Below, in pieces: positions 2,098-15,916 of a DNA stretch of 64,000 nucleotides. Origin of the DNA: an uncultured bacterium (GTDB lineage Bacteria > Fidelibacterota > Marinisomatia > Marinisomatales > UBA1611). Numbering within the stretch: position 1 is the stretch's first letter; each line of letters begins with the position of its first letter. The notes below the pieces were generated by a model. That model ran no database searches and was not told the DNA's origin. It saw only the letters and a program-made list of their open reading frames with translations. Where the stretch lies: NCBI GenBank assembly GCA_965660855.1, contig CBFIBM010000001.1, positions 256,001-320,000 of the forward strand, written 5' to 3'. The position numbers and the translations under genes are program-made.

Positions 2098-3231
2098 ATG
2101 AAAATACTTTTGTTAATTTTATTGTTAATGTCAAAAATTCAAGGACAGAAACTAGATGCAATTGACATTAATTTAAGAAACCTTAATGATGTCTTAGAAA
2201 CTGCACAAAGATCTTCTCAAAAAGTATTTGTTGACGATTTTACAGGCCTTTTGTGACCATACTGTCCCTCTGCGAGTTTCGCAATTTCAGAAATGTTAGA
2301 TTTATATCCAGAAACTTTGATTAGTGTCGAGTGGCACAGCTCAGGTTTTACTCCAGGAAATTCAGATTTTGATATACCAGCATATTCTACCAGGGCAGCG
2401 TTGTACAATGTAGGAGGTATTCCTCATACTCAATGGAATGGCGTTGTTTCAACTGTTGGTGGGTATCCAAATGGTAACTGGCAAGCCTTTATTGGAGAAT
2501 TTACAAATACCTATAATAGTATGGTTGGAGAAGAAACTCCATACAATATTGACATAAACGGTTACGCGGGTAATACTGTGAATTACGATGTTACGATTTC
2601 AATGGATTCTGATATGAGTAGCTCAAACCAGAAAGTTGATGTCTTCCTTGCTGAAGATAATATATGGTCTTATTGGAGCGGCGCAAGTTCATATCATAAT
2701 GCAAGATTTGTAGCAAGGGAATGGCTTTCTTCGGAGTATCTGAGTATCAGCAGTGCCGGCCAGAGTGAAACTTTTTCTGGTTCATTTGAATACAATGGAA
2801 ATTGGAATAGTGATAGCCTTTTTTTAATTGCTATTGTTCAAAACTATTCATCAAAACAAATTTATCAAGCCTCAAAAGTTAATATAAATGATATGGATCC
2901 GGATATTGATGATGATGGTATTTTGAATAATACTGATAATTGTATTGAAGATTACAATCCTCAGCAAGAAGATATTGATAACGATCAAATAGGTGATGCT
3001 TGCGATCCATGTAATAATTTAATTTATACTCTAGGCAACCCAAATGGTGATACAAATATCAATGGAGATCCCCTCATTGACATCATGGATGTCTTAACCC
3101 TTGTAGATTATCTTGCATTTGATCAAAATGAAAATATTTGCCAGGAACCAACTCTAAATATAAATCAAGATAATCATGTTAATATCGTTGATGTAATAAA
3201 TCTTGTTCAACTGATTCTTAATGGTGCATAA
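2098..3231 (+). CDS. Putative selenoprotein: Omp28-like thioredoxin-fold exported protein (UxxC) with TSP3-like repeats and C-terminal dockerin-like domain
   Basis: ATG 2098 gives MKILLLILLLMSKIQGQ...KVFVDDFTGLL-TGA(2254-2256)-PYCPSASFAISE, continuing in frame into the 2293..3231 ORF. The motif matches the Omp28-type 'v.vedFTg.wC.yCP', and 'YNVGGIPH' is the cis-Pro loop. The tail has DIDDDGILNNTDNC..CDPC and duplicated D/N-x-N-x-D..I.D dockerin loops. Confidence 0.85.
2257..2290 (+). promoter_or_regulatory. Candidate bacterial SECIS hairpin
   Basis: TGCGA(2271-2275)-GTT-TCGCA(2279-2283) is a perfect stem with a G-first loop 19 nt after the in-frame TGA. Confidence 0.65.
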
Positions 3232-3733
3232 TTTCTTAATAAAACCACTATTAAAATTTGTTTTTTTTAGTTCAGTTTTCTTTTCTTTTGCTCTTGCAAA
3301 AAAAGTTCCTGATTTAAATATTAAACTTATTGATGGATCAAAGACTACAATTCTAGAGCTTGCAGAAGATGGTCCATTATTAATTGATTTTTGGGCAACT
3401 TGGTGTGTTCCATGCAAAAAAGTGATGAAACATTTAAATCAATTTCATCTAAAATATGATGATCAAAATTTTAAGGTTTTAATGATTAATACAGATAGTC
3501 CTAGGTCTTTTGGAAAAGTAAAATCATTTATAAGATCTCAAGATTATAAATTTTATGTAGGGTTAGATCCTAACCAAATTACAGCCAGAAAACTTGATGG
3601 ATTAGTTATGCCTACTCTTATTTTAGTTGATGCAGGTGGGGAAATAACTTGGAGACATCAAGGTTACTCACCAGGTGATGAAAAAGAAATTGAAAATCAG
3701 ATTGAATTATTACTAAGTAAAAATACTAAATGA
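3221..3733 (+). CDS. TlpA/ResA-family thiol:disulfide oxidoreductase (exported)
   Basis: Signal peptide, LIDFWATWCVPCKK motif and MPTLILVD cis-Pro loop. Confidence 0.9.
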   Translation: MVHNFLIKPLLKFVFFSSVFFSFALAKKVPDLNIKLIDGSKTTILELAEDGPLLIDFWATWCVPCKKVMKHLNQFHLKYDDQNFKVLMINTDSPRSFGKVKSFIRSQDYKFYVGLDPNQITARKLDGLVMPTLILVDAGGEITWRHQGYSPGDEKEIENQIELLLSKNTK

Positions 3734-5682
3734 TATCAAAATTATTTAGGCTTAGTAAGCTTATTTTTCTTTTATGTTTTTTAACAGCTCAAGACTTTAG
3801 TTATAACGCCTCTATTAATTCAAGTTTTGGAAATAGTTATGATTTTTATTCTTTTTCAGAAAATAGGATAAACATCAACTTATTTTACAATAACTTTCAA
3901 AGTTGGGTTCAATATGAATATTCAAACCCACCCGACGTAGGTTTTCCAATTAATGATATAAGAAAATTTCGATTTGAATATCAAAATAAAGCTTTAAATA
4001 TTAAACTTGGCGACATTTATGAAATTTGGGGTAGGGGTTTAGTTCTTAATCAATTCGATGATCAACTTTTAGATTTTGACAATGGAATAAGAGGACTTTT
4101 TATAAATTATGGTAAAGGTCCGTTTAGTTTAACACACATAAATGGTAATGCAAATTTATGGAGTTACGGTCTTGATTTAAGAAAACCATATTATAATGAT
4201 AAGCATAATGTTATAGCAAACAGACTCCTTTATGAAAAAGGTTCCACAGTATTAGGCTTGACACATTTGATTTCTAGTGAAGAGCATTCCAAGTTAAATT
4301 TAGATGTAGTAGATGTGGGGCATACAATTAAGGGTATTTACGGTGATTATTCTTCTAATAATTTTGATATTTTTTTAGAATATGTAGATAAGGTCTCAAT
4401 CTCTAAAAATATAGTTTCAAATAATTTTCCAAATGATACCCTCAAAACAGGGTATGGTTTATATGGTAATTTGAATTTTTACTTAGGATCTTGGGGTCTA
4501 ACTACCGAGTATAAAAATTATTCTTTTGATTCGTTTATTAGTGATAAAACTCCAGATGATTATGGAAATCAAATTCAATTTCAACAAATGCCAACTTTAG
4601 GTAAGGAGCATAATTCAACGCTACTTGGTAGACTTAGCCATTATTATAATTTTAATGATGAAAGAGGTGTACAGTATGAGTTAAATGGATCATTTATAGG
4701 ACTGTCAATTAACCTTCAATATGCTCATTTAAGTAGGAATGAACAATGGTTTTCACAAAATGGCCCGTTTTCTTGGACAAATAAGATTTTGAGATCAAAA
4801 TTACCTAGTACAAAAATTAATACTAACCCATACTATGAAAACTTCCAAGAATTAAGTGGCTATCTGTTTGAAGATAAACTCTTTTTTAAGATTGGCAGGG
4901 GAGCAAATAAAGAAGTTTTAGGAACAAATTGGTTTTTTAATGGGGTTCAAACAGACACCTCTTATAGTTTGAGTTTTGCTTATGATACAACCTATTCGCC
5001 ATATGCTCCTGATTATCCAATAATTACGGTTGATAGCCTATATGACACATCTTCTGTTAGTTATAATATAAAAGCAGAGAATTGGAGAGAGAGTCAATCT
5101 TTTACGATTCCTGTTGAATTAAATTATACTATGTCAAGTGGATACTCCTTCGGAGTTGGTTTTCAGTACCAGGAGAGAACTTTAAATGAAAAAAGAAAAG
5201 GAAATTCTCATTCATATAATGTTGGAAATTCAAAATGGAATTTAGTTAATCCAGATGATTCAGACTATAAATCTACTTTAATTATATCTCAACTCTCTAT
5301 AAATGGTAAACCTAGGAAAATCCAACATAATCGTCTATTATCATTTACTTTAAGTAAAGCGCAGAAATGGTCAGTTACTATTACACAAGATTGGACTGAT
5401 GCATATGAGGTCCAATCATCTGATCCTTATTATAATCCATTAGAGGCAATAGTATATGGTGATTTAAAATATTTTACTGGGAAAAGAAATAATGTTTCTC
5501 CTCCTTCATTTATTCAAAATAAATGGGTTTCGGCAGAAGTATCATATAACATTAATTCATCTCAAAAAGTTTCAATTTTTTATGGATCTATTCAAGGTGG
5601 CTTATTCTGTAATAATGGAATATGCAGAATTATACCTGCATTCAATGATGGTATAAAAGTTGGCTATTATTTCAGTTTATAA
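3730..5682 (+). CDS. DUF6029-like outer-membrane beta-barrel protein with C-terminal CxxGxC motif (copy 1)
   Basis: Signal peptide, GDIYEIWGRGLVLN, QQMPTLGKEH, and C-terminal GGLFCNNGICRIIPAFNDG..YYFSL. ATGA-coupled to the TlpA gene. Family recalled from motif, not searched. Confidence 0.7.
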   Translation: MISKLFRLSKLIFLLCFLTAQDFSYNASINSSFGNSYDFYSFSENRININLFYNNFQSWVQYEYSNPPDVGFPINDIRKFRFEYQNKALNIKLGDIYEIWGRGLVLNQFDDQLLDFDNGIRGLFINYGKGPFSLTHINGNANLWSYGLDLRKPYYNDKHNVIANRLLYEKGSTVLGLTHLISSEEHSKLNLDVVDVGHTIKGIYGDYSSNNFDIFLEYVDKVSISKNIVSNNFPNDTLKTGYGLYGNLNFYLGSWGLTTEYKNYSFDSFISDKTPDDYGNQIQFQQMPTLGKEHNSTLLGRLSHYYNFNDERGVQYELNGSFIGLSINLQYAHLSRNEQWFSQNGPFSWTNKILRSKLPSTKINTNPYYENFQELSGYLFEDKLFFKIGRGANKEVLGTNWFFNGVQTDTSYSLSFAYDTTYSPYAPDYPIITVDSLYDTSSVSYNIKAENWRESQSFTIPVELNYTMSSGYSFGVGFQYQERTLNEKRKGNSHSYNVGNSKWNLVNPDDSDYKSTLIISQLSINGKPRKIQHNRLLSFTLSKAQKWSVTITQDWTDAYEVQSSDPYYNPLEAIVYGDLKYFTGKRNNVSPPSFIQNKWVSAEVSYNINSSQKVSIFYGSIQGGLFCNNGICRIIPAFNDGIKVGYYFSL

Positions 5683-5760
5683 AACCATTAATTGTTTCTT
5701 TTTATTAATTATCTTTTGAATTTTTCAGTTCCAAAAGTATATCGTGATATTTAAAATTAT

Positions 5761-6645
5761 GTGAAGAATTATATCTTAAGCATTCCTTTAGCAAAATTAA
5801 TTTTTATTCTATCTATTATTTTATCAAATACTATTTATCCTCAAATAGATATAGGTTCAATATCTCCTAATTTCACTGCTCCTGTATGCGCAAACGGTGA
5901 TCTCGAGTTATTCAACTTGTACCAACAAACTAATGGCAGTTTTAATGGTGGTGATTATAAAGTAGTATGGATCAATTTATTTACTTCTTGGTGACCAAGT
6001 TGCCAAGTGGAGGCTCCACTATCAGAAGAAATATGGCAAGAATATTTAAGCGGAGGGGAAGAAAAATTAGTTGTTATGGCAGCTGGGTTTGATTGGCATC
6101 AGCCTTATAGCTGTGAAGAATGGTCAACTGCATTTGGTATAACATACCTAATGGTAGATGATACAAATAATGAAGCATGGAATATTTATGGTGATGGCTA
6201 TATTCCGCATAATGTAGTGTTAGATCATAACATGCAGGTTCTATATACAAGTTCAGGATTTAACTCAAATGAAATAAAAGATGCAATCGATCTCGGCCTA
6301 TCTTATGTTCCAAGAGATTTAGATTTAGATGGAATTAATGATAACATAGATAACTGTGATGATATTTATAATCCTAATCAAGAGGATGTTGATGTAGATG
6401 GCATCGGTGATTTATGTGATAATTGCGATAACTATAATGTATTTATTTCTGGAAATACTGATGGTGGTTTAGTAAATGGAATTCCCATTTTAGATATTTT
6501 TGATGTGTTGAACCTAGTTGATATTGTTTTATTGGATGAATCTGGTACCTGTAGATCTGATATCTCAGATTTGAATTCAGATAATAATATTAATATTATT
6601 GATGTGATATTTCTTGTACAGGGGTTGTTAAATGGTGAATTTTAA
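5761..6645 (+). CDS. Putative selenoprotein: exported redoxin (UxxC) + TSP3-like repeats + dockerin-like domain
   Basis: ORFs 5761..5994 and 6007..6645 are in the same frame and joined by a single TGA (5992-5994), reading INLFTSW-U-PSCQVEAP. Paralogues at 13932 and 15002 read FTSWCGFC and FTSWCAYC. Confidence 0.9.
5995..6039 (+). promoter_or_regulatory. Candidate bacterial SECIS hairpin
   Basis: AGTGGA(6006-6011)-GGC-TCCACT(6015-6020) stem with the loop 17 nt after the TGA. Possible lower stem TTGCCA(6000-6005)/TGGCAA(6034-6039). Confidence 0.7.
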
Positions 6646-6757: not shown

Positions 6758-9700
6758 ATGAATATTTTTAAAAAAATGACCTTCTTCCTTCTGTTTTTTT
6801 CCTTAATTAAAGGTCAAGGTGATTATTCATTTAAAAATATTTCAGTAGAAGATGGACTTGCTGAAAGTACTGTAAAGATAATCTATGAGTCAAAACAAGG
6901 TTTTTTATTTTTTGGAACTGAAAATGGTCTTGATATTTTTGATGGTTATAAATTTAAAAACTATCATATGGATTCATTCGATAATGAATCAATTCTTGGA
7001 AATAAAGTTTCAGCTATTTACGAATCAAGTAATAATTTGATCTGGGTAGGAAGTGAGCTAGGATTTAGTTCATTTAATCCTTCAACACAAAAATTCAAAA
7101 GACCGTCATTAAGTAATAATAATATTACAAATCCAGAAAAAATTACAGAAGATGAAAGTGGGAAAATCTGGATTAAAGAGGCTCAATCTAGCCGTTTATT
7201 TAAATATGATTTTAATAAAGATATTCTTGAATGTATTTCATGTGATCAAATGAGCATCCTTTTTAATCAAACCATAAATATTCTACACAAATCGAATAAA
7301 GGTGCTTTGTGGATTGGTACTGATAAAGGTCTTTATTTTTATGATATTAATGATAAATCTATCAGGCCGATTGAATCAAAATATTCCTTAAGCATTAATG
7401 AGCCATATTATATTACATCAATTGAAAATGGATCAGATTCCATTTTATGGATAGGAACAAAACAAGGTCTTATCAAAATTGAAGAAAATAATAAGAGTCA
7501 AATTAAGATTTTTAAGAATTCGGAGGTTGAAAATTCTATCGTTTCTAACAAGATAAATGATATTAAATGGGATAATCTTAGGAATGAGTTATGGATTTCT
7601 ACTGTGGATGGAATTTCAAAATATTCACCTGAACTAAATTCTTTTTCTAACATTCAAGTAGGTCCGTTTGCTAATAGCATAATAGAAAATGATGTTACGG
7701 ATATTTTGATTGCTGAAAAGTCTGGAACTTTATGGTTTAAAACCAGAAACCGCTTTGGAATAAATAGTTTTAAAGCAACATTCAATGAATTTGAGGGGCC
7801 GGATACTTCAATTATGCATTTTGAACATGATCCTATTGATCCATTTTCTATTGCTGACAATGATATAACAAATTTTATTGAGGATAGAGCTGGCCACGTC
7901 TGGATAGGAACACGACAAAATGGGATAAGCTTTTATTCATTTTTGAAGCCTAAATTCTCATTGCTTGAATATGATCAAGAAAATGAATGGGGCCTCAAAA
8001 GTAATAAGATTTATTCAATTACAACCGATTCTTATGGTATGATGTGGGTTGCAACAGGGTTTGGATTAGAAAATATTTCTTCGGATGGTATTAGAGATTT
8101 TGAATTTGAAAAATCTTTTATTGAATCCAACCATGTCATGGATTTAGAGTTAGTAAATGATCAATATTTATGGGCGGCAACTGAAAATGGAATTCTTAGA
8201 ATTGATGTATTATCAGAAGAAATTATTCGATTTAACACCTCTCAAAATGTTAATAAAAAAAGATTAATTTCTGATAATTTTATTAGAGACCTGCTTATAA
8301 CAAAAAATGGTTCTATTTGGGCGGGGACAAAATCAGGAATTACAATAATAGATACAGTTGATTTAAGTGCTGTCAGTTTTAGCTCAGATTTTACTGCTAG
8401 GGTATTATACCAAGACGAAAGTGAAAATATATGGATAGGAACAGATTATAATGGATTATATCAAATACCATATGAAATTATTTCTGATCTAAAAAAAGAA
8501 GATATTTTTGAAGTAGAGGGTCATGTTTTTGACTCAGAGTTTTCTGATGGTCTATCATCTTCACAAATAACCTCTATAACTCAAGATACGACTGGTGTTT
8601 TATGGGTTGGTACAGCTAGTGGTTTAAATAAGTATATTGAAAGTGAAGATACCTTCTATCATTATTTCATGAAAGATGGTCTACCTAGTAACTATATTAC
8701 GGGTGTTATTGTAGATCAAAGTAATAACCTGTGGATAAGCTCTAAGAACGGTATTTCTTTCTTTAATCAGAAAGACTCTTCTTTTATAAATTATGGGGTT
8801 TCCGATGGAATAGGGAATATTGATTTTCATCAACATTCTTTTGAAAAAAGTATTGATGGAAACATATATTTTGGTGGGCCAAAAGGAATAACTAAAGTAA
8901 ATCCCTCAAATTTACAATATAATGAATACAAACCTCCTTGTTCAATTCTACGCATTAAAAAAACACTTTATGATGGATCTATTACTGAAGTTTTTCCTCA
9001 AAAAAGTTCGAAACTAGAAATTCAAAAGATTAATATAAATCATAAAGTAAAATCATTCTCAATCGATTTTGTTGCTCTGAATTATCATAAAACTATAAAG
9101 AATGAATATAGATATAAACTTCAACCTTTTGATAGGAATTGGGTAGAATCGGGGAATATTAAATTTGCATCTTACAATAATTTAGGTAGAGGAGAGTATA
9201 CCTTTTTTGTGCAAGGATCTAACGATGATGGATTATGGAGTCAGTCTGCTGTTTTAGATTTTAAATTTATTCCTCATCCTCTTTTAAGTTATGGTGCTTT
9301 TGGAGTCTATCTTGCACTAATTATATTTGGTGTATACTGGCTAGTTAAACAAAGAATATTAAAACAGCAATCTGAGGCTGATGAAAAGAGAAGAGCCGAA
9401 GAATTAGAGCAAGCTCGGGAATTCCAGATGTCACTAATACCTCAAAATCCTCCTTCTATCAGCGGATTTGAATTTGCTTTGCATATGAAAACATCTACGG
9501 AGGTTGGTGGTGATTATTATGATTTTTTTCCTCAAAAAAATAATGTTCTTTATGTAGTTTGTGGTGACGCCACTGGGCACGGTTTAAATGCTGGTATGAT
9601 GGTTTCAATTACAAAAGCAGGATTATTCGGATCAGACTTTAGTAATCCAGGTATTACAACTACTAGGTTAAATCAAACAATAAAAGCTATTGATCTTGGA

Positions 9701-10105
9701 ACAACAAGGATGTCTTTGAATATGGCTAAGTTTGAAAATGAATCCTTTGAGTTTACATCAGCTGGTATGCCTCCTGCATATTTATTTCGTGGTGAAACAA
9801 AGGTTGTAGAGGAAATTTTAATTCCTGGTTTGCCTCTGGGGTCTATGAAAAATGCTACATTTGATTCTGAGATATTTGAATTTAAAATAGATGATGCGTT
9901 AATCTTAATTTCAGATGGACTTCCTGAATGTGTTGACCATAAAGATGAAATGTTAGATTATGATGCAGTAAAGAACTGTATTGAAAAAAATGGGCATAAA
10001 TCAGCAAATGGCATTAAAGATGCCTTGATAAAATTGGGTGATGACTGGATGGACGGTCTAATGAATGATGATGATATAACATTGGTAATTATAAAGAGGA
10101 AATAG
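6758..10105 (+). CDS. Membrane sensor: two-component-type beta-propeller repeats + Y_Y_Y domain + TM + SpoIIE/PP2C Ser/Thr phosphatase
   Basis: Repeated 'LWIGT..GL' propeller motifs, YRYKL..FD..W/ASYNNL.RGEYTF (Y_Y_Y), a TM near residue 850, then EVGGDYYDF, GDATGHG, LISDGL and DDDITLV PP2C motifs. Confidence 0.9.
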   Translation: MNIFKKMTFFLLFFSLIKGQGDYSFKNISVEDGLAESTVKIIYESKQGFLFFGTENGLDIFDGYKFKNYHMDSFDNESILGNKVSAIYESSNNLIWVGSELGFSSFNPSTQKFKRPSLSNNNITNPEKITEDESGKIWIKEAQSSRLFKYDFNKDILECISCDQMSILFNQTINILHKSNKGALWIGTDKGLYFYDINDKSIRPIESKYSLSINEPYYITSIENGSDSILWIGTKQGLIKIEENNKSQIKIFKNSEVENSIVSNKINDIKWDNLRNELWISTVDGISKYSPELNSFSNIQVGPFANSIIENDVTDILIAEKSGTLWFKTRNRFGINSFKATFNEFEGPDTSIMHFEHDPIDPFSIADNDITNFIEDRAGHVWIGTRQNGISFYSFLKPKFSLLEYDQENEWGLKSNKIYSITTDSYGMMWVATGFGLENISSDGIRDFEFEKSFIESNHVMDLELVNDQYLWAATENGILRIDVLSEEIIRFNTSQNVNKKRLISDNFIRDLLITKNGSIWAGTKSGITIIDTVDLSAVSFSSDFTARVLYQDESENIWIGTDYNGLYQIPYEIISDLKKEDIFEVEGHVFDSEFSDGLSSSQITSITQDTTGVLWVGTASGLNKYIESEDTFYHYFMKDGLPSNYITGVIVDQSNNLWISSKNGISFFNQKDSSFINYGVSDGIGNIDFHQHSFEKSIDGNIYFGGPKGITKVNPSNLQYNEYKPPCSILRIKKTLYDGSITEVFPQKSSKLEIQKININHKVKSFSIDFVALNYHKTIKNEYRYKLQPFDRNWVESGNIKFASYNNLGRGEYTFFVQGSNDDGLWSQSAVLDFKFIPHPLLSYGAFGVYLALIIFGVYWLVKQRILKQQSEADEKRRAEELEQAREFQMSLIPQNPPSISGFEFALHMKTSTEVGGDYYDFFPQKNNVLYVVCGDATGHGLNAGMMVSITKAGLFGSDFSNPGITTTRLNQTIKAIDLGTTRMSLNMAKFENESFEFTSAGMPPAYLFRGETKVVEEILIPGLPLGSMKNATFDSEIFEFKIDDALILISDGLPECVDHKDEMLDYDAVKNCIEKNGHKSANGIKDALIKLGDDWMDGLMNDDDITLVIIKRK

Positions 10106-10116
10106 GTTAAACTCTC

Positions 10117-10683
10117 ATGATAAAAAATACAATTAGAATAATCTATTTGCTTATGTTTCTTTCACTTGGATATTCTCAAGAAAAAATACCAAACTTGAGA
10201 CTTAAAATGTTGAATGGAAAATATGCAAAAGTAAATGATTTTTTAAAAGATGGACCAATGATTATAGATTTTTGGGCTACTTGGTGTGAGCCATGTAAGA
10301 AACAGATGAAATATCTTAATATATTTAATAATCATTTTAAGGAAACTGGATTTAAAGTACTTGCTGTTAACACTGATACACCTAAAAGTATGAGTAAGGT
10401 TAAATCTTATGTCAGAACAAAAAAGTTTGAGTTTGACGTTGCAGTGGACCCGAATAGTCAGGTTAAAAAGAAAATGAAGGTTTTGCAAATGCCTACAACT
10501 ATTTTAGTTGATAAAACTGGACAAATAGTTTTTAGACATCAAGGATATTTACCTGGCGATGAACATGATATTCTTCAAGCTATTTATGGTTTAATGGATA
10601 AAAACAATACTAGTTATGAAAAACTTGATTTGAATAAGAACAATAAAAAACAAATTAAATCCGGTGCTGAAGTTGATTTTTAA
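10117..10683 (+). CDS. TlpA/ResA-family thiol:disulfide oxidoreductase (copy 2)
   Basis: Signal peptide, IIDFWATWCEPCKK and MPTTILVD. Clear paralogue of 3221..3733. Confidence 0.9.
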   Translation: MIKNTIRIIYLLMFLSLGYSQEKIPNLRLKMLNGKYAKVNDFLKDGPMIIDFWATWCEPCKKQMKYLNIFNNHFKETGFKVLAVNTDTPKSMSKVKSYVRTKKFEFDVAVDPNSQVKKKMKVLQMPTTILVDKTGQIVFRHQGYLPGDEHDILQAIYGLMDKNNTSYEKLDLNKNNKKQIKSGAEVDF

Positions 10684-12946
10684 TAAGCAAATAATTGTAT
10701 CATTCATATTGATACTTAGTAATTCAGATTTATTTTCCCAAATAACAGCTGGTGGGAACTCTATTCTAAAATTTGGCGAGAGTAAAAATGAATTTCACTA
10801 TTCAGAGGTTTTGCTGAATATGAACTTATCAAATGATTATTTGGAGACTTGGTTTCAATTCGAATACAGCAAACCACCTGAGATTGGGATGAGTATTAAT
10901 GGTCTGAGAAAATTTAGGATTGACTATTCTGATGGCCCTTTCGAATTATCTGTTGGAGATATATATAAAATTTGGGGGAGGGGGTTAATATTGAACCAGT
11001 TTGATGATCAGGATGTAAATCTTGATAATGGTTATAGAGGATTAAGTTTCAGTATAATAAAAGATAACTATACCATTGATTTAATATCTGGAATTTCAAA
11101 TATACATAGAATTAGTCAAGATTACTGGCAAAATATAGATCAAGAATCAAGAAAGCCAAATCATTTATCAAAACATTCTATGTTTGGTAGTGATTTAGAG
11201 TTTTTTCAAGGACCTTTTTCTCTAGGTTTATCCTTTCTTCAAAGTAGAGAGAATCATCCCATCAATAATCCGATCACGATGATGGCAGATAGTATTAATG
11301 TAATTCATCGAATAAATGGTTTAAGAGCCGGATATGAAGGCGGGCGTCTCGCCTCCTACTTAGAATTATCTGGAAAAAATACGCTATTATCTCAATCCGA
11401 AAGTCAAATATATAAGGAAAATTTTAATCCTTATAATGGCTTCAGTCTTTTTGGAAATATTAATTATTATTTTCAAAGTCAGCTTCTAGACGGATGGTCA
11501 TTAACAATGGAGTATAAAAACTACAATACAACAAAATTAAATACATCAGATAAAGACAATTTTGTTAAAAATTATGATATGAATTTAATTTTTACTCAAC
11601 CCCCGACTGTTTTAAGGGAACATAGCAGTGTATTTTTAGCTAGACTTATTCCTCAGGTAAATTTCAGCGATGAAGTAGGTTATCAATTTTCTCTTGTTGG
11701 TCCTATTATGGGGATAGGGTATTTTACTCTCAACTATCAAGCCGCAAGTAGAACAAACTTATGGGGTAAAACATACCCAGATACTGTAAATGCTATATTA
11801 TCTACTAAATGGGAAAGTGATAGTGCAGTTACCGTATTGCCATTCAGTGAAAAATCCGGACTGCCATACAATGAACTTTATCTTGAAATGGAAGGTTACA
11901 TAAAAAATATTAGGTATCAATTTGGCTTTGGTATCACAAACAAAATACCTGAATATCATTCGTCGTATAATAGTGGAAAGAATGGTGTCTGGGATAATGG
12001 TGAAGCGTTTGATGATTTAAATGGCAATAATATTTATGATATTGGAGAAAATTTTACTGATCTTTACAGTATAGTAAATGAAAAAATTGATAATAAAACT
12101 GTTACAGCCATTACAATACCTTCTCTTCTAAATTATAATTTAGGAAATGGGTGGAGTATTGATTTAAAATATGAATTTCAAAAGATTAAAAGTGGTACAA
12201 AATATTATAATTCATTGTCCTCTGATGAAGTATTCTATGATAGTAATGGAAATGGTGTTTGGGATATTGCAGAGTTATTTGAAGATAGTAATGGTGATGG
12301 TATTTGGAACCAAGCTGAAGAGACATGGTATGATTTATGGCAAAGTGGTTTAATACCCGATGAACAATTATACTACTATGATACTGACGGCGATGGTTTA
12401 TTTTCGGAGGGAGAATATTTTACTGATGCTGATGGAAATGGCATGTGGAATTCATCAGAAAACTTAATTGATGAAGATGGTGATGGAATATGGGATGATT
12501 CAGAGTATTTGGAGGATCTAAATAATGATGGAGTCTGGACAAAAAGTGGAGTGTATGAAGATAGGTATCAATCTAATTTTTATTCAAATGATTCAAAAAG
12601 TGGGTTGAGTATTCCTGAAGATTTTCAAAATAATCATCTGATATCACTCGGAATAGGAAAATCGCCTTATTGGTCACTATCTTTAACGGTTGAATCAAGT
12701 TCAACCTATGAATATGGTCCATTAAAAAATAGTGTTGTTAATCCTCTAGAGAGTTTCTTAGGTAATATTATTGATTTAAATAATAAGTGGATTGCTTTAG
12801 AATTTATGGTGAATATAAATTCAAATACTAGGCTCGATTTAATGTACGGTACGCAAAGGGGAGGGATTATTTGCAGTAATGGAATTTGTAGGTATGTTGA
12901 ACCTTTCGATGATGGATTTAAATTAGCGTTATCAACAGTATTTTAA
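10664..12946 (+). CDS. DUF6029-like outer-membrane protein (copy 2) with inserted acidic DxxGxGxWD repeats
   Basis: Shares GDIYKIWGRGLILNQFDDQ, QPPTVLREH and C-terminal GGIICSNGICRYVEPFDDG with 3730..5682, and ends in Phe. Confidence 0.7.
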   Translation: MLKLIFNKQIIVSFILILSNSDLFSQITAGGNSILKFGESKNEFHYSEVLLNMNLSNDYLETWFQFEYSKPPEIGMSINGLRKFRIDYSDGPFELSVGDIYKIWGRGLILNQFDDQDVNLDNGYRGLSFSIIKDNYTIDLISGISNIHRISQDYWQNIDQESRKPNHLSKHSMFGSDLEFFQGPFSLGLSFLQSRENHPINNPITMMADSINVIHRINGLRAGYEGGRLASYLELSGKNTLLSQSESQIYKENFNPYNGFSLFGNINYYFQSQLLDGWSLTMEYKNYNTTKLNTSDKDNFVKNYDMNLIFTQPPTVLREHSSVFLARLIPQVNFSDEVGYQFSLVGPIMGIGYFTLNYQAASRTNLWGKTYPDTVNAILSTKWESDSAVTVLPFSEKSGLPYNELYLEMEGYIKNIRYQFGFGITNKIPEYHSSYNSGKNGVWDNGEAFDDLNGNNIYDIGENFTDLYSIVNEKIDNKTVTAITIPSLLNYNLGNGWSIDLKYEFQKIKSGTKYYNSLSSDEVFYDSNGNGVWDIAELFEDSNGDGIWNQAEETWYDLWQSGLIPDEQLYYYDTDGDGLFSEGEYFTDADGNGMWNSSENLIDEDGDGIWDDSEYLEDLNNDGVWTKSGVYEDRYQSNFYSNDSKSGLSIPEDFQNNHLISLGIGKSPYWSLSLTVESSSTYEYGPLKNSVVNPLESFLGNIIDLNNKWIALEFMVNINSNTRLDLMYGTQRGGIICSNGICRYVEPFDDGFKLALSTVF
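12238..12545 (+). repeat. Coding repeat: ~6 acidic D-x-[ND]-G-[DN]-G-x-W/F units (putative Ca-binding loops)
   Basis: DSNGNGVWD, DSNGDGIWN, DTDGDGLFS, DADGNGMWN, DEDGDGIWD, DLNNDGVWT. Confidence 0.8.
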
Positions 12947-13015: not shown

Positions 13016-13909
13016 ATGAAAAAATTCATTTTAAAGTTTTTTATTTTATTTTCTATAACATTTCCCTCATTTGTTATATGTCAGGGTCAAATTATACAAG
13101 ATTTTTCCTACCCAATTTGTGCTAATGGTGATGGTGAAACAGTTTTAAATTTTTATGAATCATTCAACGGATCAGTAAACAATTGTGAGTATAAAGTAGT
13201 TCTTGCTACACTTTTCACCTCCTGGTGACCATCCTGTATGACGGAGGCTCCGGTTCTAGAAGAAATATTTAACACCTACAAAGATCAAGGATTAGAAGTT
13301 GTTGCATTTGGAGCCGACTGGTATCCTGATGGACCCTATACTTGTGAAGGGTGGGATCAACAATTTAATCTTTCTTACCCAATACTTGATTTTGAGACAG
13401 GATTAGAAAATTGGTATTGGGAGTCAGCTCCGTATGATTTATACCAGCCCGAGTTAGGTTGGGGGTTACCTTTTAATGTAATAATAAATCATGAGATGGA
13501 AGTTTTATGGGGTGCAGCAGCCAACTTTGAGGGTGATGTAATGGCTGAGGCTATAGGTGTTATTGAATCAGCTCTCCAAGCGTTGAATGAAGAATTTCCC
13601 GATGGTCCAGGGGATGATGATGGAGATGGAATAGCAAATGGTTGTGATCCTTGTCCAGAATCTCATTTACACCATCCTGGAAATTTTGATTTTTCTCAGG
13701 TTTATTCACATTTTGATAATGGTGCAGTCTTTGTACCATCTGTAGATATTTTTGATTTAATACTATTTTCAGATTATATAATGGATGGTGGCTACCTAAC
13801 TGATTGTATCTTAGAGGCGCACGATATTACCGGGGATGGTTATGTCAATCCTTTCGATGTTATAGCATTAGCTCAATTAATTCTTGGAAATGATTGGGGT
13901 TTAAATTAG
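13016..13909 (+). CDS. Putative selenoprotein: exported redoxin (UxxC) + short TSP3-like motif + dockerin-like domain
   Basis: ORFs 13016..13228 and 13238..13909 are in the same frame and joined by one TGA (13226-13228), reading ATLFTSW-U-PSCMTEAP. Homologous throughout to 5761..6645. Confidence 0.9.
13229..13260 (+). promoter_or_regulatory. Candidate bacterial SECIS hairpin
   Basis: CGGA(13242-13245)-GGC-TCCG(13249-13252), with the same GGC loop and 17-nt spacing as at 6006-6020. Confidence 0.65.
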
Positions 13910-13931: not shown

Positions 13932-14855
13932 ATGAAATTATTTTATCATATTTTTCAGAAGAGTATTATTATTTTTGTTTTAATTTATACTTCTACCACT
14001 TCAGAAATGCAAGGTCAGGTAGCTGTAGGTGACACTATAAACCCTTCTCAATTAAGTTTACCAATTTGCGCTAATCAAGAACCCTTTGGCCCTTCAGAGC
14101 AATTTTTTGATATTTCGATTTATAATAACCCAGATCAAGATTCACAATCAAAAGTAATTTTACTTTCTATTTTTACATCATGGTGCGGATTTTGTCAAAC
14201 TGAAGCTACACACTTACAAGATTTACATACTGAATTTGCCGATGATGGATTGTTAGTTGTTTCAGCTGGAGGAGATTGGGGTTTTCCATATGATTGTGAG
14301 GGTTGGTCTAATGAATTTGATTTAAGTTATCCAATATTAGATTTTATGAATCCCTTTAATCCTAATTGGGGAGAAGCGCCATTAATGACCTATTTAGGAG
14401 TAGCTGCAATACCCTTTAATGTAATTATAGATCATAGGAACATAGTCTCAAATATTATAATAGGATATAATGAGGAAATATTGAACCTAGCTATTGAAGA
14501 TGCTCTTGAAGCAATGATTCAAGATAGTGATGGTGATGGAATTAATTCTGAAGCAGATAACTGTCCATCAATATTCAACCCAGGTCAATCTGATTTTGAC
14601 GGTGATGGCATAGGAGATGTCTGCGATGCTTGTGATAATCTTAATATATTTGTTAACGGAAATCTTAATGGTACATTAAATCTTGATCAAGAACCAACCA
14701 TTGATATTCTAGACTTATTGTTACTGGCCGACTTCCTTGAGGGATTACCAGATCAAAATATCTGTCATGAGGCTGCCTCTGATATTAATGAGGATTCTAA
14801 TATAAATTTACTTGATGTATTTTCACTTGCCTATCAAATTACTGGGCAAAATTAA
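13932..14855 (+). CDS. Exported redoxin (CxxC, Cys paralogue of the selenoproteins) + TSP3-like repeats + dockerin-like domain
   Basis: Signal peptide, PICAN, IFTSWCGFCQTEA, IPFNVIID, DSDGDGINSEADNCP..CDAC and a dockerin-like tail. Confidence 0.88.
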   Translation: MKLFYHIFQKSIIIFVLIYTSTTSEMQGQVAVGDTINPSQLSLPICANQEPFGPSEQFFDISIYNNPDQDSQSKVILLSIFTSWCGFCQTEATHLQDLHTEFADDGLLVVSAGGDWGFPYDCEGWSNEFDLSYPILDFMNPFNPNWGEAPLMTYLGVAAIPFNVIIDHRNIVSNIIIGYNEEILNLAIEDALEAMIQDSDGDGINSEADNCPSIFNPGQSDFDGDGIGDVCDACDNLNIFVNGNLNGTLNLDQEPTIDILDLLLLADFLEGLPDQNICHEAASDINEDSNINLLDVFSLAYQITGQN

Positions 14856-15001: not shown

Positions 15002-15916
15002 TTGTTAAAAAAAAATTTTAAAAAAATAAATTACCTCAAAGTATTTACAATACTTTTATTGCAATCATTATTATATAGTCAAATTGCAATTGGTGATACT
15101 GTCTTTAATCTGCAATTACCAATATGTGCTAATTCTGATCCTGATATTCACGAACAGCAATATTTTGATATAAATGATTATAATGGTTTTCCCGAAAGTA
15201 CTATCAGCCCAAGGGTAATTCTTCTTGCAATCTTTACTTCATGGTGTGCGTATTGTCAAACTGAAGCGTTCCTTTTAGAAGATTTACATGAGGAGTATAT
15301 TGATGATGGATTATTGGTCCTTTCTGCTGGTGGTGATTGGGGCTTCCCATATGATTGTAGTGGTTGGGCAAATTCATTTAATTTAACTCATCCAATATTA
15401 AATTTTATGACAACTAATGTGGAAAGTTGGGAAGATGCTCAATTGATAAACTATTTGGGAGTTGGTATTGTACCACATGCTGTTGTAATTGATCATCGAA
15501 ATATTCTTTCAAACACCATTGTGGGTTATAATCCTAATGCTTTGAATCAAGCTGTTGAAAGTGCGCTTGAAACAATGGCTCAAGACCTTGATGGTGATGG
15601 AGTTTTATTTGATGATGATAATTGTCCTTCAATTCATAACCCAGAACAAATAGATATTGACAATGATAACCTTGGTGATGAATGTGATTTATGTGATAAT
15701 CTTAATAATTTTGTAATTGGCAATCTAAATGGTACACTAGATCAATTTCAGCAAGCAACCATTGATATTTTTGATTTATTGTTATTAACTGATTTTTTAG
15801 ATAATTCTTACGAGAATAATGTATGCTCTAACGCTGTATCCGATATTAATGGTGATAATTCTATAGATCTAATTGACGTATTTACGCTTGCTTATATTAT
15901 TTCAGAACAAAATTAA
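15002..15916 (+). CDS. Exported redoxin (CxxC) + TSP3-like repeats + dockerin-like domain; tandem paralogue of 13932..14855
   Basis: TTG start, PICAN, IFTSWCAYCQTEA, shared SAGGDWGFPYDC, DLDGDGVLFDDDNCP..CDLC. Confidence 0.88.
   Translation: MLKKNFKKINYLKVFTILLLQSLLYSQIAIGDTVFNLQLPICANSDPDIHEQQYFDINDYNGFPESTISPRVILLAIFTSWCAYCQTEAFLLEDLHEEYIDDGLLVLSAGGDWGFPYDCSGWANSFNLTHPILNFMTTNVESWEDAQLINYLGVGIVPHAVVIDHRNILSNTIVGYNPNALNQAVESALETMAQDLDGDGVLFDDDNCPSIHNPEQIDIDNDNLGDECDLCDNLNNFVIGNLNGTLDQFQQATIDIFDLLLLTDFLDNSYENNVCSNAVSDINGDNSIDLIDVFTLAYIISEQN

Follow-up and report, generated by a model that had tools for sequence, protein, structure and literature searches.

A tailed ResA/TlpA-type redoxin of the Marinisomatales with a predicted selenocysteine at an in-frame UGA, and the gene neighbourhood in which it lies

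Redoxins with a predicted selenocysteine (Sec, U) in a UxxC motif were grouped as 'Prx-like 1' in the 2008 ocean metagenome survey of Zhang and Gladyshev (PLoS Genet, PMC2398784), where Table 2 assigns the group to Pfam family 00578. The family was later called 'Prx-like thiol:disulfide oxidoreductase' and is described as predicted with high confidence in PMC5029168 and PMC13188914. Here, we analyse a member of this family encoded at 5761–6645 of a 64,000-nt stretch of DNA (the window) from an uncultured bacterium of the Fidelibacterota (Marinisomatales, UBA1611; assembly GCA_965660855.1, contig CBFIBM010000001.1, positions 256,001–320,000 of the forward strand). We put the probability at roughly 0.93 that 5761–6645 is one gene, in which the UGA at 5992–5994 is decoded as Sec, and that its product is an exported enzyme of the ResA/TlpA type. 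An earlier note on this DNA had proposed the selenoprotein, and that proposal is supported by the Sec/Cys pairing of paralogues, by a covarying hairpin restricted to the Sec forms and by the Sec machinery of the genome.

The selenoprotein family is already known. Orthologous reads stand under '#Prx-like 1' in Dataset S1 of the 2008 survey, so that the family has been a published predicted selenoprotein since that year, and the novelty that the earlier note had attached to it was set too high. Matching by eye of the Dataset S1 reads to the present protein and its orthologues showed that Global Ocean Sampling (GOS) reads such as JCVI_READ_1018099 have the same W-U-P-S-C-Q-V-E-A-P, the same upstream P-x-C-x-N-G and the Asp-rich, dockerin-like tail, while JCVI_READ_1096619 and 1011732 match the other two Sec paralogues of the genome. 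The UxxC motif is present in our protein, which scores 31 bits with Pfam Redoxin PF08534 (cut-off 26.6) and 25.0 bits with AhpC-TSA PF00578 (cut-off 26). The published group is heterogeneous and also includes W-U-P-Y-C and other types. We found no published description of the tail, of the gene cassette discussed below or of the spread through the phylum, although the tail may correspond to 'Unknown_3' in Figure S1 of the 2008 survey. Literature on selenoproteins of Marinimicrobia/SAR406, on Omp28 selenoproteins and on DUF6029 yielded no description of this redoxin subfamily, and the names 'Marinimicrobia' and 'Fidelibacterota' are absent from the accessible text of the 2026 review (PMC13188914).

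A mechanical list of open reading frames (ORFs) divides the gene in two. The first ORF (5761–5994, 77 aa) ends in the TGA at 5992–5994 and the second (6007–6645, 212 aa) continues in the same frame, with CCA AGT TGC CAA (5995–6006) and nothing else between them after the TGA. When the TGA is read as U, the joined product has 294 residues, with U78 within F-T-S-W-U-P-S-C. The multiple alignment proposed in the earlier note covers the four paralogues of the window from end to end at 36–39% identity, with W77, position 78 and C81 as invariant columns. U lies opposite Cys in two of these paralogues (TGC in the gene starting at 13932 and TGT in that at 15002) and in six Cys forms of related genomes, giving eight forms with TGC or TGT at the codon. 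The fourth paralogue (13016–13909) is a second Sec form. The shared frame and its sole separator, the end-to-end match of the joined protein to the Cys paralogues, their codons and the number of paralogues had all been given in the earlier note, and all of them are borne out.

The split could be taken at face value: translation would stop at TGA 5992 and restart at GTG 6007, and the products would be an exported peptide of 77 aa and a cytoplasmic protein of 212 aa. Public gene calls resemble the ORF list in this respect: among 120 listed relatives, 111 extend over no more than 72% of the query, and most of them have 212–215 aa. Against this, the codon at the would-be start is GTG in only 8 of the 33 orthologous sites and ACG, TCG, GCG or GGG in 25, so the start is not conserved, and the independent initiation at GTG 6007 that the earlier note had raised against its own proposal is made unlikely by the orthologue codons. 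The part upstream of the TGA is itself conserved in the orthologue alignment (C43, N45 and W77 are invariant), always in the same frame as the downstream part. Two genes would also cut the thioredoxin fold at its active site and leave the downstream product without its first strands and signal peptide. We consider a pair of genes very improbable.

The TGA is conserved well beyond this genome. Among the genomes of the same family, 46 of 54 have a match to the redoxin; 65 matches extend across residue 78, of which 57 have one in-frame TGA and 8 none (hand count). In every fetched locus a TGA occupies the W-x-x-x-C site (38 motif matches, 33 distinct sites). In a sample of the phylum, 83 of 251 genomes have a match; the 115 matches comprise 70 with one TGA, 1 with two TGA, 1 with TAG and 43 with no stop, by a hand count that takes in stops anywhere in the match, whatever their position in the protein. 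Coding conservation extends across species on both sides of the UGA in a single frame. The TGA-bearing stretch is also present in sequencing runs of 13 studies. An independent DNA contig spans 5600–6504 with a single change at 6080, and a 305-nt contig from an RNA library spans 5749–6053, crossing the TGA; in the RNA-library runs X17 and X18 only gene parts away from the TGA are covered. These data bear on whether a Cys codon has mutated to a stop, leaving a pseudogene, or the TGA is an assembly error. A single base change turns TGC or TGT into TGA, and the gene has Cys paralogues nearby. The same TGA nevertheless recurs in dozens of genomes, with proteins as little as about 45% identical, as well as in 11 of 13 loci on viral contigs and in independent assemblies of several studies, and both halves of the gene are still under constraint. 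A decayed or misassembled gene is, in our estimate, the least probable of the explanations considered.

Bacterial Sec insertion elements of the Escherichia coli fdhF type (selenocysteine insertion sequence, SECIS) consist of a stem-loop that begins about 11 nt past the UGA and carries a G in its apical loop about 20–23 nt downstream. The earlier note had supposed a hairpin downstream of the TGA, and such an element is present, conserved and covarying in the 33 distinct Sec sites and missing from the 8 Cys forms. Its core is GGAGGCUCC, with a stem beginning 11–13 nt past the TGA (11 nt in the 5761–6645 gene), and all 33 sites share the arrangement TGA-N6-TGY-N5-GGAGGCTCC. It is like the fdhF element in the start of the stem at about 11 nt and in the apical-loop G, but much shorter, and it lies within a fixed E-A-P coding context; binding by SelB is putative. 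The 9-mer GGAGGCTCC occurs only six times on both strands of the 2.09-Mb genome (31% G+C), and three of these copies lie exactly 17 nt after W-TGA-x-x-TGY, which is more than chance would give. A fourth copy, on contig C1 of the genome (G000 C1:188233, minus strand), lies 12 nt past a TGA whose frame closes 15 codons on, and is probably there by chance.

All 33 sites have G-C at pairs 18/26 and 19/25 of the stem; at pair 20/24, 32 sites have A-U and one has G-U. Pair 17/27 varies in a compensated manner (C-G in 21 sites, U-A in 8, G-C in 2 and unpaired in 2), and the viral-contig copies add A-U and U-G. This pair couples the middle position of a variable codon (V/T/S/A/G) to the wobble position of the Pro codon that follows, a link that protein selection alone would not give. 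The observed covariation score, 0.297, was reached by none of 500 shuffles, whose score was 0.114, and registers slid along the alignment gave at most 0.099. Local folding energies range from -3.3 to -12.3 kcal/mol in the Sec forms and from 0 to -3.8 kcal/mol in the 8 Cys forms, where no such hairpin forms. An extended lower stem, UUGCCA/UGGCAA, was seen in the 5761–6645 gene only and was discarded, as it is not kept in orthologues.

The genome (a binned assembly of 81 contigs, totalling 2.09 Mb at 84% completeness) encodes the machinery for Sec. tRNA-Sec scores 63.3 bits (cut-off 47) and is called tRNA-SeC with anticodon TCA by ARAGORN; a SelB-specific winged-helix domain lies in a 629-aa frame; and SelA and SelD score 422.9 and 388.9 bits, the selD gene itself with one in-frame TGA. 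The absence of selB or selC, which the earlier note had named as fatal to its proposal, is thus disproved, with tRNA-Sec, selA, selB and selD all present. Of 897 long frames, 148 terminate in TGA, beyond which the median open stretch is 4 codons; this shows that the code has not changed. This matters for a reading of the UGA as Trp, Cys or Gly, through near-cognate suppression or a lineage-wide change of code, in whose favour nine full-length database relatives have entries showing W at the Sec position. These entries (P0039–P0041, P0046, P0064, P0065, P0067, P0068 and P0076, all W-W-P-S-C) are best explained by table-4-style gene calling, because they have the same E-A-P context; evidently the source pipeline translated TGA as Trp, and the entries do not speak for a Cys or Trp form. 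The site is moreover that of the catalytic Cys of CxxC, followed by a dedicated hairpin in a genome with a full selA/B/C/D set. Decoding as another amino acid thus seems highly improbable, if a shade less so than two separate genes, and Sec insertion at U78, as judged from the sequence, remains very probable.

Several observations weigh against this interpretation. Taken as a single sequence, the 60 nt past the TGA do not fold significantly (z = -1.36, equalled by 22 of 200 shuffles), and in the paralogue with its TGA at 13226 the minimum-energy fold omits the hairpin (z = +0.77). The conserved stem is short, at 4–6 pairs; RNAalifold retains 4 pairs (-3.37 kcal/mol), and of the 33 sites, 9 lack pair 15/29 and 13 lack pair 16/28. 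The stem includes the codons of E84 and P86, two residues that ResA conserves as well, so that the sequence conservation of the hairpin is partly driven by the protein. The RNA-library contig is a weak point, because it may stem from DNA carry-over, and no contig can be evidence of translation. Within the bin, the Sec genes and the window are on different contigs, the AhpC-TSA match falls just below its cut-off, and protein-level evidence for Sec in the redoxin family was not found in the literature.

The catalytic domain resembles ResA, TlpA and CcmG (DsbE), with which it has in common the thioredoxin fold, the W-C-x-x-C-x-x-E-x-P spacing, predicted export and a genome encoding a DsbD-type reductant supplier. 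It differs from them in having Sec for the first Cys, the WCxxC at the start of helix 1 being otherwise present, and in an additional conserved Cys pair (C43 and C118) and a 110-residue tail. The AlphaFold model, built from 35 sequences, has a mean predicted local distance difference test (pLDDT) score of 87.7 and places U78 between strand 68–75 and helix 79–97, the usual place of CxxC in a thioredoxin fold. The best solved structures found by Foldseek are ResA, DsbE and TlpA-type chains (E about 3e-10, TM-score about 0.8 by target length), and a profile search matched ResA 4nmu (E=1.1e-14) with identical W-C-x-x-C-x-x-E-x-P spacing. It is not a ResA orthologue, given 33.9 bits with NCBIfam ResA NF002854 (cut-off 170); TIGR00385 likewise gives 18.4 bits, where the curated cut-off is 123, and we saw no link to cytochrome c maturation. 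NF041054, 'ResA-like WAxxUGC motif-containing protein', is also a ResA-like selenoprotein, with a different motif; it gave no match for the 5761–6645 protein, and a paralogue reached E=0.0076 and 15.6 bits (cut-off 300).

Whether such a selenoprotein would reduce protein disulfides or act as a peroxiredoxin-like thiol peroxidase depends on how these likenesses are weighed. For a peroxidase there are the Pfam AhpC-TSA and Redoxin matches, the name 'Prx-like' of the 2008 survey (PMC2398784), the occurrence of the peroxiredoxins Bcp and AhpE among the lower structural matches and a Thr three residues ahead of U78. The best sequence and structure matches, however, are ResA, DsbE and TlpA and not peroxiredoxins, the W-C-x-x-C-x-x-E-x-P signature is ResA-like, and neighbouring genes encode TlpA-like reductases. 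The peroxiredoxin motif is given as PxxxTxxU in PMC13188914, and our protein has no Pro seven residues ahead of U78, so that the peroxidatic PxxxTxxC/U pattern is incomplete. Provided that Sec is inserted, we favour a disulfide reductase with some reserve, and hold a peroxidase to be an unlikely though by no means negligible option.

The hydrophobic N-terminus and the lone helix ahead of the fold in the model suggest that the redoxin is exported. Residues 186–235 match the type-3 repeats of COMP/thrombospondin (E=2.4e-36 in the profile search). The C-terminal 140 residues match positions 239–377 of NF045500, 'Omp28-related selenoprotein', with 97.8 bits, below the 200-bit cut-off; the N-terminal catalytic domain is unrelated, and the tail module alone is shared. 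Many orthologues reach about 500 aa and have at their C-terminus the type-IX-secretion sorting domain PF18962, which the 5761–6645 product and its nearest relatives lack.

From these features a course of events may be proposed. SelB with Sec-tRNA would bind the stem-loop at 6006–6020 (core GGAGGCUCC, GGC loop) and insert Sec at UGA 5992, the hairpin that would direct decoding being placed within the codons of conserved residues after the active site. In the exported enzyme, the selenolate of U78, first residue of the WCxxC motif, would act as nucleophile and C81 would resolve, oxidation forming a U78-C81 selenenylsulfide. The Asp-rich type-3 repeats and the dockerin-like tail would probably anchor the enzyme at the cell envelope or surface. 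Electrons would probably flow from DsbD to the TlpA-like proteins encoded next to the redoxin and on to the redoxin itself, keeping it reduced; the DsbD-type membrane supplier of reductant is encoded at another locus of the genome.

Table 1. Features of the selenoprotein gene, its paralogues and neighbours in the window, and further selenoprotein genes on other contigs of the genome (given as contig:positions)
Feature	Position	Strand	Basis or remark
Whole selenoprotein gene	5761..6645	+	GTG start, 294 codons, TAA stop; orthologues have one TGA in an otherwise uninterrupted full-length frame
TGA predicted to be read as selenocysteine, U78	5992..5994	+	Frame, paralogue alignment, conservation across genomes
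U-P-S-C redox motif, TGA CCA AGT TGC	5992..6003	+	Sequence; position in model between strand 68–75 and helix 79–97
SECIS-like hairpin AGUGGA-GGC-UCCACU	6006..6020	+	6 pairs, GGC loop; minimum-free-energy fold, conservation and covariation, absent from Cys forms
Predicted N-terminal signal or anchor, residues 1–26	5761..5838	+	Hydrophobic N-terminus; lone model helix 10–22 ahead of the fold
ResA/TlpA-like thioredoxin-fold domain, residues ~32–182	5854..6306	+	Pfam Redoxin, Foldseek, profile match
Thrombospondin type-3-like Asp-rich repeats of calcium-binding type, residues ~186–235	6316..6465	+	Profile matches; Pfam TSP_3 below cut-off
Dockerin-like helical tail, residues ~240–294	6478..6642	+	Dockerin_1 below cut-off in paralogues; helices 246–258, 265–269, 279–291
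Second Sec paralogue	13016..13909	+	TGA 13226–13228, hairpin core 13242–13252, same W-U-P-S-C motif
Cys paralogue	13932..14855	+	TGC at Sec codon; without hairpin
Cys paralogue	15002..15916	+	TGT at Sec codon; without hairpin
NF045500 Omp28-related selenoprotein, U-P-Y-C	2098..3231	+	562.5 bits (cut-off 200); TGA 2254–2256; 2.5 kb upstream
TlpA/ResA-like Cys redoxin, W-C-V-P-C	3221..3733	+	Overlaps start of DUF6029 gene by 4 nt
DUF6029 protein, predicted large outer-membrane beta-barrel	3730..5682	+	Directly upstream of the 5761–6645 selenoprotein gene
Second TlpA/ResA-like Cys redoxin, W-C-E-P-C	10117..10683	+	Overlaps start of second DUF6029 gene by 20 nt
Second DUF6029 barrel gene	10664..12946	+	Directly upstream of second Sec paralogue
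Third tailed Sec redoxin	C1:123938-124750		Outside the window
'Prx-like 2' type selenoprotein	C1:355608-356825		Outside the window; named by motif likeness to 2008 dataset
Two TlpA-like W-U-x-x-C genes	C1:178995-180700		Outside the window; named by motif likeness to 2008 dataset
'Trx-like 3' type selenoprotein	C5:42298-43326		Outside the window; named by motif likeness to 2008 dataset
UshA-like C-G-U gene	C5:19659-20849		Outside the window; named by motif likeness to 2008 dataset

The order TlpA-like gene, DUF6029 gene and Sec redoxin occurs twice in the window (Table 1), and its two DUF6029 genes are the only ones found in the genome. Adjacency of DUF6029 and redoxin recurs, by coordinates, in other families and classes of the phylum. 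In 23 of 34 loci, which are partly related and include those of the window, the redoxin is closely preceded by the C-terminal motif of DUF6029, and in 7 further loci an Omp28-type Sec gene is immediately upstream instead. In the phylum sample, a hand count finds DUF6029 in 73 of 83 redoxin-positive and 61 of 168 redoxin-negative genomes, these genomes being kin. The motif in question is an invariant C-x-N-G-x-C-R loop near the C-terminus, about 20 residues from the C-terminal aromatic residue. The model of the DUF6029 protein (pLDDT 73.4) shows in Foldseek a generic likeness to 22-strand TonB-dependent barrels (TM-score 0.35–0.4), and its Cys loop, residues 621–639, is modelled with low confidence and so gives no functional lead. 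A search of a protein atlas with the DUF6029 protein returned its own family only; in PMC9603273, DUF6029 is likened by HHpred to the Wzi barrel. In one loop of the 760-aa DUF6029 copy, Asp/Gly-rich D-x-N/D-G-D/N-G-x-W repeats follow one another.

These genes might constitute a dedicated envelope module, made up of a TlpA-like periplasmic reductase, a plug-less DUF6029 barrel and one or more tailed Sec/Cys redoxins, a grouping that we regard as speculative and rather improbable as it stands. The same low expectation attaches to the roles that the parts could have in it, with the barrel exporting or docking the surface selenol enzyme, held by its calcium-binding dockerin-like tail, or relaying reducing power to it. 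Counts of promoter-like sites (83, with 84.5 expected) and terminator-like sites (6, with 5.5 expected) do not inform the operon structure. The cassette of TlpA-like gene, DUF6029 barrel and redoxin and the viral-contig copies described below are not, as far as our literature search went, described in print.

Other features of the neighbourhood are of minor note. The Omp28-type gene at 2098–3231 ends in the same thrombospondin/dockerin-like tail and is likewise split in the ORF list, and a UGCGA-GUU-UCGCA hairpin can be seen by eye after its TGA. The TlpA-like proteins of the window (3221–3733 and 10117–10683) and the Sec forms at C1:178995-180700 all end in a short [I/V]-D-F. Between the two cassettes, 6758–10105 encodes an 1115-aa protein with Reg_prop and Y_Y_Y beta-propeller sensor repeats and a SpoIIE/PP2C phosphatase domain.

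At least 10 selenoprotein genes, selD among them, are identified with confidence in the genome, in the window and on contigs C1, C5 and C19. A loose genome-wide search for frames containing U gave 230 candidates, mostly noise, and only those with a recognisable family motif were kept. The neighbourhoods of the third Sec paralogue and of the two TlpA-like Sec genes held nothing telling. By the six-gene threshold in the accessible part of PMC5029168, where Deltaproteobacteria, Clostridia and Synergistetes are the only phyla named as selenoprotein-rich, this genome would count as selenoprotein-rich.

Of the 120 relatives listed in a public protein collection, 111 are cut off at the TGA, and the remaining 9 show W in place of the catalytic residue. 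Public records thus lack or misstate the active site of a protein family that is abundant in the sea, and correction of the annotation is the practical value of the present analysis, together with leads from the neighbourhood and from phages. The adjacent Sec and Cys paralogues, with and without the hairpin, also form a compact natural pair for the minimal requirements of a bacterial SECIS. On viral contigs of IMG/VR, related loci (L066–L076) have the Sec form with the same hairpin core in 11 of 13 cases, and no DUF6029 motif was found within 2 kb of these redoxin loci. On one of the viral contigs (L067, 131 kb), the redoxin gene lies between genes for a class II ribonucleotide reductase and a family B DNA polymerase.

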